Assembly (NCBI GenBank): GCA_951804945.1
Contig: OX638156.1
Location: 50,654,001 to 50,718,000 of the forward strand
Direction of reading: 5' to 3'
Length of the DNA: 64,000 nucleotides
From: Podarcis cretensis
Lineage: Eukaryota
A program made the position numbers and the translations under genes. Each line of letters opens with the position of its first letter. The stretch's first letter is position 1. The notes under the pieces are model-generated. The model saw only the letters and a list, made by a program, of their open reading frames with translations, was not told the DNA's origin and ran no database searches. Shown in pieces: positions 57,387-60,300 of this stretch.

Positions 57387-60300
57387 ATGGCGGCCCCGGA
57401 GCCTTCGGCGGACCTAGAGGAAGCGAGCCTGCTGGCATGGCTGTTCCGCGGGGCGACCTCGCCGCTGCCTCCTCCCCTGGCGGCGGGGGACGCGGAGCTG
57501 GCGGCCTACCTGTCGGCGCTGGCGGGGCTGGGCCTGGAGGCCTTGCGGAGGGAACCCGGCCGGTTAGCGGAGGAACGAGCGCAGCTCGGGGCGCAGACGC
57601 GGGCCTTGGCCTTCGCCCACTATAAGACCTTCATCCGCTCCGCCGAATGCACCGCTGAGACGCGTCGCGGCTTCGGTGGCATCGAGCAGGGCCTCGACCG
57701 CCTCTTGGGCCGCCTCCCACCCTTCGCCGAGGCCTGCCGGTGAGCAGGAGGAGTTGGAGGCCAAGGCTGCCGCCACACTCCTTTTGGGGGCAGGAATAAT
57801 TCTGGGGCGCCCCACTGTTATGTTGTAAATAAAAATATGCCCTTTTCCCTTATGGGGTATCCAAGAGCCCTTATAGAGTCCTTACATAGGTTCCCTATTG
57901 GTAGGAGAAAATAACAGAGGCCAACCAGAGAATATTGAGAAGCAAAGCAGCTAGTAAGCTTGATCTTTATTGATCTGTTGCAACGGGGTACTCCCCTCAC
58001 ACTCAGGAGAGGAGGTCGGAGGACCCTGTTGCAACAGATCAATAAAGATCAAGCTTACTAGCTGCTTTGCTTCTCAATATTCTCTGGTTGGCCTCTGTTA
58101 TTTTCTCCTACCAATAGGGAACCTATGTAAGGACTCTATATGGGCTCTTGGATACCCCATAAGGGAAAAGGGCATATTTTTATTTATAACAGTTAACTTA
58201 TGGAACTCACTGCCATTGGAATGGGTGGGTTAGAGGGGGCTTCCCCCTTTGCTTTTCCTGGCCTAACCTGCTTTCTTCTTCTTTTGCTCCTGCCTCCAGG
58301 AACTTCATGCAGGAGGCTGAACAGATTGCTCAGAACCGCCGTATGAACAGCCTGACTCTGAACCTCCACACAGAGATCCTGGAAGTGCTGGAGATCCCCC
58401 AGCTGATGGACACCTGCGTCCGCAACAGTTACTACGAGGAGGCCCTGGAGCTGGTGTCCTATGTCCGCCGCCTGGAGAAGAAGCATGCCACCATCCCTGT
58501 CATCCAGGTGCAGACATGTTCTGAGCCTGGCAGGTGCCAGAGCTGCCTTAAGCCATACGGTGATAGTAGGTCCCAACTATTTGCTACTAGAGTTTCAGGA
58601 CTTGAGCAAAAGCTTAGCAAAGAAAGGCATCTCCAACCTTTTGCATTTGTTTTCTCTGCCATGGCTCACAGAGGCAGAGGTGGTGTGGCTTCTGTGCTGG
58701 TTTCCTAAGTTTGATCCAGGTGATACCCAAGGCCCACAATCCTGGACCATCATGAGCTGTCATGTTCTGTTTGTAGAAGCCAGAATATTTCTGGATCTGA
58801 GGCTTCTTCTCTTGTTGCCTTTTTTCTTGACTAAGTGCTTATGTTGCTTATTGCAGCCAGGGTTTGTGCATGTGCTGTAGGGATCTGTTTCTTTGACTTT
58901 CAACAAGAGCAGGATACAAGCCACTGATCTCTTTAAGTGCAATCTGTAAAGCAGGGATAGATAGAAGGTAGACCACACCCCATCACTGACTAACGACTCT
59001 TGGCTAATGTCTAATTTGCTAGTTGCAGGGATTCTTGTACAGAAAGCTGAGATGAGGCAGGCCCTGTTCTGATCCAATAAAGCCCTTCTTCCATCTGCAA
59101 AGAAGAATGCATTGCTAAGGTCACAGCACTTTATTTATTTACCATGTTTATATCCCACTCTTCCTCCTAAAGGAACTCAGGATGACAGCAAGTTATGCCT
59201 CTTTAAAAGTTCCCAAAAGTACACATCATTATAAAATGCAGTTACCTCATACCAGGTTTGACTTCACTAAGCCCATTATTGTCTACTCTGGCAGCCAGAG
59301 TGTATCTACTATATCAAGCAGGTATATCTACCACTGACCTGTAGACCCTCTCCATAAGTGATCACATGGATGATCCATAAGAACTGTAGTGAAAATAAAA
59401 TAGTTTGTGCAGTATTGAGATCAGCATGGTTTGGGAACCATGGGTAACAGAAGTTGATTTTGTCTCTCTTCTCCTTCCCAGGGCATAGTGGCAGAGGTGC
59501 GCCAGTCCACACAGCTCATGCTTACGCAGCTGATCCAGCAGCTTCGCACCAACATTCAGCTGCCAGCCTGCTTGCGCATCATTGGCTACCTTCGCTGCAT
59601 GGATGTCTTCACTGAGGCTGAGCTACGAATTACTTTCCTGCAGGCACGGGACATCTGGCTACGTTCTATCCTTGCTGCTGTTCCTGGTGACGACCCCTAT
59701 GTGCATATTACCAAGACCATCGAGGCCTGCCGCGTGCACCTCTTTGACATTGTCACGCAGTACCGTGCCATTTTTGCTGACGAGGAGCCGCTGGTGCCTC
59801 CCCCTGGGCAGGACACCCTCAATGAAAGTGCCATCTTCCATGGGTGGGTCCTGCAGAAGGTCTCCCAGTTCCTGCTGGTGCTTGAGCATGACTTGCAGCG
59901 TGGTGTGGGCAGCCGCCTGGACTCCCTGCTGGGCCAGTGCATGTACTTTGGCCTCTCATTCAGCCGTGTTGGAGCAGACTTCCGGGGCCTGCTCATCCCC
60001 ATATTTCAGCGGGTGGCACTGGTCACCTTCAAGAGAGCCATGCAGGAAGCTGTGAACAAATTCCAGGAGGAGATGAACTCCTACACGCTAATCTCTGTGC
60101 CGACTGCCTTGGGCAGCAGCAGCAGCACCATCCCTGTAGCAGTGGCTCCTTCTGCCCAGCCAGGCACCCTGCAGCCCCCCATGGTGCTGCTAGATTTTCC
60201 ACCACTCGCCTGCTTCCTCAACAACATCCTGGTAGCCTTCAACGACCTGCGCCTCTGCTGCCCTGTGGCTCTTGCCCCAGACGTGGCGGCTACCCTGGAG

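Follow-up and report, generated by a model that had tools for sequence, protein, structure and literature searches.

We find that the foldback element at positions 57821..58191 of the 64-kb stretch of Podarcis cretensis DNA analyzed here (the window) is an inverted duplication of one end of a long terminal repeat (LTR), inserted in a COG8 intron with an integrase-type U5 end on each side and an exact 4-bp target-site duplication (TSD). The insertion is real and single-copy, and it is a member of a small recurrent class. Because precise U5 tips and an exact TSD occur together in three of three cases, we consider it quite likely that integrase acted on DNA with two U5 ends, taking all routes to such DNA together. 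As for the route itself, we favor on balance, and with modest confidence, a U5-ended LTR piece derived from self-primed, folded minus-strand strong-stop DNA that was opened to a duplex and inserted by integrase.

The architecture given in the preliminary description of this DNA held up. Two 174-nt arms (57821-57994 and 58018-58191) are 98% complementary around a 23-nt spacer, with four mismatches at arm positions 5, 51, 165 and 170; the ends read TGT...ACA, and GTTA stands on either side of the element on the plus strand (57817..57820 and 58192..58195). These arms form the longest inverted repeat of the window, at 174 nt, with the runner-up at 48 nt. The placement in COG8 was also correct, as both flanking exons match the Pfam Dor1/COG8 family (E = 4e-15 and 1e-25), and the Dor1 profile positions that they cover, 3-76 and 78-146, are contiguous across the two. 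The host intron (57740..58299, plus strand, GT..AG) is about 185 nt long minus the insertion. An AATAAA signal of the LTR at 58041..58046 (plus strand) has the same sense as COG8 transcription, and a second AATAAA lies at 57828. Rfam returned no matches in the loci L001 and L002, and ARAGORN found no tRNA in the 64-kb window.

The arm belongs to an LTR family. A search of the genome gave 1821 first-look candidates, of which 40 were scored, and in the 28 other top copies that we fetched the arm sequence continues into a repeat of about 677 bp. An exact 4-bp TSD flanks 17 of the 27 copies whose far end was found, a polypurine tract (PPT) adjoins the far end in L007 and L013, and a primer-binding-site (PBS) motif adjoins the arm end in L034, L032 and L072. 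L034 is a two-LTR element with both PBS and PPT and about 4.9 kb of internal DNA (L034:4332-10000). These TSDs, PPT and PBS motifs and the two-LTR structure of L034 identify the repeat as an LTR whose R-U5 end makes up the arm, as the preliminary description had read it. Its reading of the 4-bp TSD as an integrase signature is likewise upheld, the duplication being that of the family's own integrase. Direct LTRs, TG..CA ends, a PBS after the 5' LTR, a PPT before the 3' LTR and a short TSD were all found in that family.

The proposed LTR origin had also been expected to lead to gag-pol, and this expectation was borne out in part: the arm matches LTRs and L034 has two of them, but no gag or pol domain was found inside. 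A Pfam scan of 88 of the 92 long open frames from 15 internal regions, comprising L034/L032 and 14 that were fetched out of 37 leader matches, with L065 left out, together with six X-read frames of L034, returned no gag, pol or env domains. Nor was there an integrase domain in the 88 frames, so that the integrase-only reading frame envisaged beside the arm did not appear. RVT_1 frames in L067 were rejected as the family enzyme since they look like LINE insertions. L034 itself looks non-autonomous, with no recognizable internal coding domains save a short gag-like start. The PBS of the family is one that we take to be of the tRNA-Arg type. Judged by this PBS type, the 4-bp TSD and the MGAPQSK start in L034, the parent is likely a class I endogenous retrovirus (ERV) rather than a Gypsy-type element. 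Five of the 28 LTR copies (L008, L011, L013, L017 and L029) contain a repeat of about 360 bp, presumably a SINE, inserted at differing positions. Six U5-tip motif matches in the same orientation lie within 265 kb at G000:C8:17077917-17342633, possibly reflecting a tandem segmental duplication.

Alignment to the parent LTR confirmed that one LTR end has been duplicated in inverted orientation to give the element. Its first segment (57821..58026) is LTR minus strand that starts at the U5 tip and stops where R is predicted to begin; it covers parent positions 677 to 476 plus a 4-nt insertion and is 95-98% identical to solo LTRs by BLAST. It closes with a hairpin inherited from the parent LTR (57986..58026, plus strand), which measures 37 nt in ordinary copies. 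The ACCC at the 3' end of this hairpin pairs with GGGT, and the hairpin forms the fold-back point. The remainder (58027..58191, plus strand) is a 165-nt inverted copy of the first 165 nt, lying in LTR sense (parent 513-677) and ending in the second U5 integrase end. The spacer is parent LTR sequence with the 4-nt insertion in the loop, an insertion present in no other fetched locus. Like solo LTRs of class I (gamma/epsilon-like) ERVs or related elements, the COG8-intron insertion belongs to the same LTR family and has TG..CA ends and a 4-bp TSD. The solo and proviral LTR copies and the element share the layout of TATA and AATAAA given in PMC3601003, with PBS and PPT in the proviral copies. Unlike solo LTRs, the element lacks U3 and the U3 end, is inverted rather than direct and did not come from LTR-LTR recombination. 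With no PBS, PPT or promoter, it is predicted to be immobile, and probably is.

The turning point coincides with two features of the parent. Ordinary copies run on into U3 after ACCC, whereas the element turns there and copies the first 165 nt back; the last four bases of the 37-nt hairpin pair with GGGT, and the inverted copy begins exactly at the next template base. The 63-nt parent segment folds as DNA at -11.3 kcal/mol (z = -2.8), with the minus-strand 3' end of the hairpin paired in 42 of 63 copies. Read in LTR sense, the hairpin opens with GGG. The distance between its first G and the first T of a TATA-like box is 29 nt in 48 of the 63 copies and 27-30 nt in all 63. Spacing from the TATA box predicts the cap site of such promoters. 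The GGG 29 nt after the TATA-like box (58024-58026 of the window, minus strand) is, from this spacing, the predicted cap site and RNA 5' end. The element strand thus spans from the U5 tip to this GGG, the extent predicted for minus-strand strong-stop DNA. Since hairpin and predicted cap site coincide, the breakpoint alone cannot separate reverse transcription from a template switch at a host replication fork.

The mismatches between the arms carry information of their own. That at arm position 170 goes back to the parent LTR, whose hairpin is imperfect. The arm as copied therefore comprises 165 nt with three true substitutions. These remaining three are private to one or the other arm among close copies and amount to about 1.8% between arms. 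Owing to a private base near the right tip, the right end is the reverse complement of the left flank over 7 nt (57816-57825, 58187-58194). The change may therefore have been templated inside the hairpin and not be random.

We found the same junction nowhere else, either by four gap-pattern searches, which covered 40-105 nt around the poly(A) motif and 90-150 nt around a neighboring motif, or by BLAST of the junction against the genome. One extra match, L112, was dismissed as chance because it has no foldback: a LINE-like fragment there adjoins an R-U5 piece. At this locus (L112:1143-1750) the LINE-like fragment is joined directly to an LTR piece beginning near the predicted R start. A census by the exact U5-tip motif counted 114 young ends, of which 112 were covered (100 plus 12 through a longer motif). 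Among the 100 matches listed, seven pairs of outward-facing U5 ends lie within 6 kb of each other, and the 12 further ends gave no pair. All three pairs closer than 600 bp carry an exact 4-bp TSD: GTTA in the window, CAGT at L113 and ACGC at L117. Uniform placement of ends would yield 0.0013 such close pairs, or 5e-6 with a TSD; because LTRs cluster, the TSD is the stronger argument of the two. Compact foldbacks occur only at these three loci among all those fetched.

In the assembly, L113 (G000:C1:137796034-137796325) is a 292-bp U5-U5 element in which parent positions 677-537 are joined to 515-677, with the junction at a 12-bp palindrome in R. In one arm, 11 nt have been lost between short direct repeats. 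Its arms share a substitution that is absent from every other fetched locus and so come from one template or one provirus. L117 (G000:C14:54979482-54979991) is a 510-bp U5-U5 element joining parent 677 to about 236 with 612-677; the long arm reaches about 230 nt into U3 and the short arm measures 66 nt. Junction microhomology at both loci is just 1-2 nt. The three elements therefore range from 292 to 510 bp, and the short arm always lies within R-U5. Because the junctions differ, L113 and L117 are independent events of one recurrent error rather than copies of an element.

The other four pairs are best read as neighboring insertions. Each LTR of L115 has its own TSD; the second LTR of L118 has its own TSD; and L116 has no outer TSD, its opposite-strand neighbor being a separate insertion. 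L114, with two full LTRs 88% alike and 543 bp of other DNA between them, is probably also a pair of neighbors, although its outer flanks are one mismatch short of a TSD. No compact U5-U5 element was found in 100 of 328 older-subfamily ends, which counts against generality, with L124 ambiguous. At that locus (L124:586-2412) a complete LTR with 4 extra nucleotides is fused to 64 nt of U5 tip in inverted orientation, and the junction falls almost where that of L117 does. Another U5 tip, degenerate, is found 770 bp beyond; the whole is enclosed by ACAC and contains LINE and other DNA. A fourth U5-U5 case at L124 is possible. No U3-U3 element with a TSD was seen among all 39 strict and 100 of 694 loose U3 ends, and another eight close pairs, drawn from the lists of U3 and of older U5 ends, included no clean case. 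The asymmetry between U5-U5 and U3-U3 forms is not significant (3/100 versus 0/100, p = 0.25); a Fisher test on ends (p = 0.005) was discarded as it counts both ends of each element.

How could DNA with two U5 ends arise? According to the fold-back route that we favor, reverse transcriptase would start at the tRNA primer and reach the RNA 5' end, the minus-strand 3' CCC would pair with GGG 37 nt back, and self-primed synthesis would copy 165 nt up to the U5 tip. The resulting hairpin could become a two-ended duplex by re-priming at the copied PBS with strand displacement or, alternatively, two hairpins could share one intasome and be opened and joined by host repair, a joining that could account for the 4-nt insertion. 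The family integrase would then insert the duplex into the COG8 intron. The precise ends and the TSD in all three cases suggest that reverse transcriptase made this DNA before integration. Against this route, the L117 long arm extends into U3 and is not plain strong-stop DNA, so that fold-back after strand transfer would be needed there, and the L113 and L117 junctions fit less neatly, their microhomology being weak.

The proposed first steps have a biochemical counterpart. HIV-1 minus strong-stop DNA self-primes at cTAR according to section 5.1 of PMC6088434, which describes the products as dead ends for strand transfer that were undetected in endogenous reactions with HIV-1 particles. Similarly, in PMC4668388, the 3' CCC anneals to an internal GGG and is extended to the primer end, giving abortive products. 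Both the HIV-1 DNA and the COG8-intron element have a hairpin at the 5' end of R that starts with GGG, and a 3' CCC that pairs back and is extended toward the primer end. However, the HIV-1 case is a test-tube product suppressed by nucleocapsid, whereas the equivalent here is a sequence of the germ-line genome that has a U5 end on either side and is flanked by an exact TSD, and its origin by reverse transcription is inferred.

An alternative that keeps the two-ended integrase substrate is that two full-length viral DNAs shared an intasome by their U5 ends, and that the break was closed by resection and joining at a short inverted repeat. This would explain the two U5 ends with an exact TSD, the varied junctions with weak microhomology and the reach of L117 into U3, but elements of 292-510 bp would require near-total loss of two multi-kb molecules each time. 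Further, the COG8-intron junction falls exactly on the predicted RNA 5' end, and U3-U3 and long-armed forms, which joining of this kind predicts, were not seen in our small sample. We regard it as unlikely.

We give similarly low credence to a host origin, in which a solo LTR left by an ordinary integrated provirus would have undergone a replication-fork template switch at the R hairpin, with an inverted R-U5 replacing U3 and the copy returning at the terminal ACA. The R hairpin supplies a switch point, no unusual substrate for integrase is needed to explain the TSD, and mutation by short template switches that give rise to inverted repeats is documented in PMC7954356. As in the four-point model of that source, an inverted copy arises here at a pre-existing short inverted repeat. 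However, in three of three cases the copying would have to end precisely at the U5 tip and rejoin precisely at the border between U3 and TSD; the LTR minus strand has 18 ACA sites, yet the return is at the terminal one. The copies of 165, about 141 and 66 nt are also mostly longer than the ape template switches reported in the same paper (median 12, maximum 128), and they return exactly at integrase ends in all three. Lastly, the host route predicts U3-U3 forms as frequent as U5-U5 forms, and compact foldbacks occurred at no fetched locus beyond the three.

Data from other organisms bear on whether the palindrome is genuine. In the related organisms C and D (study P2), Logan contigs pass from one flank to the other, leaving out exactly 375 bp with an ambiguity of 4 letters and retaining one copy of GTTA, which provides the empty site that the preliminary description had called for. 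Organisms A (study P1) and B (study P2) have contigs that carry the right junction over 35 element letters with no differences, including the private base near the tip; two studies are involved, and the source of the assembly may be one of the runs of organisms A or B. An assembly foldback artefact is very improbable: no contig listed from the four runs bridges the element center, and the left junction is carried in organisms A and B by only 28 element letters, under our 31-letter bridging rule, but the arms differ at three private positions, the TSD is exact, and the right junction recurs in two organisms from two studies while two others have the empty site. No RNA data sets among those listed contain the element.

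Equally hard to sustain is the suggestion of a Ginger-type MITE or another multicopy foldback family mobilized as DNA. Ginger termini, as given in PMC2836005, are inverted repeats of 40-270 bp that start with TGT and have a 4-bp TSD, ranges into which the 174-bp arms, TGT ends and 4-bp TSD of the COG8-intron element fall. However, what forms its arm is the U5 end of an LTR that occurs in direct repeats, with a PBS beside this end and a PPT at the far one, none of the 28 other top copies is palindromic, and the junction, single-copy in the gap-pattern and BLAST searches, fails the copy-number expectation for the mobile, possibly undescribed non-autonomous family that had been proposed. Although it resembles Ginger1, Ginger2 and their non-autonomous copies in its inverted termini and TSD length, the element has no transposase and no target preference: GTTA, CAGT, ACGC and the varied TSDs of solo copies correspond neither to CCGG/CCGT (Ginger1) nor to RTATAY (Ginger2). 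The element represents a recurrent error preserved as a fossil rather than a family, with a single copy per junction and arms from an LTR element.

We found no published description of integrated U5-U5 fold-back LTR pieces in the sources available, among which subscription and older virology literature is thinly represented; PMC5210030 describes one fish ERV with an inverted 5' LTR of a different layout. More tentatively than for the COG8-intron element itself, we propose that self-primed minus-strand DNA may have been repeatedly completed and integrated in the germ line of this vertebrate, at about 3 per 110 young LTR ends, leaving U5-U5 palindromes from which the RNA start sites and R hairpins of extinct retroelements could be read. 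An LTR end would thereby become a unit bounded by terminal inverted repeats (TIRs) in one step, a possible route to Ginger-like ends. The TIRs of Ginger1 have been suggested, in PMC2836005, to derive from two oppositely oriented LTRs, and U5-U5 elements would show a one-step route to Ginger1-like ends from oppositely oriented LTR ends. De novo MITE finders would misfile such palindromes as DNA transposons. For the host, U5-U5 insertions are a one-step source of long perfect hairpins in transcripts: in a computed fold the element would fold most of the short COG8 intron (MFE -405 kcal/mol, z = -35), and the intron also gains a predicted sense AATAAA signal from the insertion. If the reverse-transcription route is true, these elements would be in vivo fossils of a step called a dead end in HIV-1 biochemistry, integrase would be able to insert two-U5-ended DNA in the germ line, and U5-U5 elements would mark the cap sites of ERV families without RNA data.
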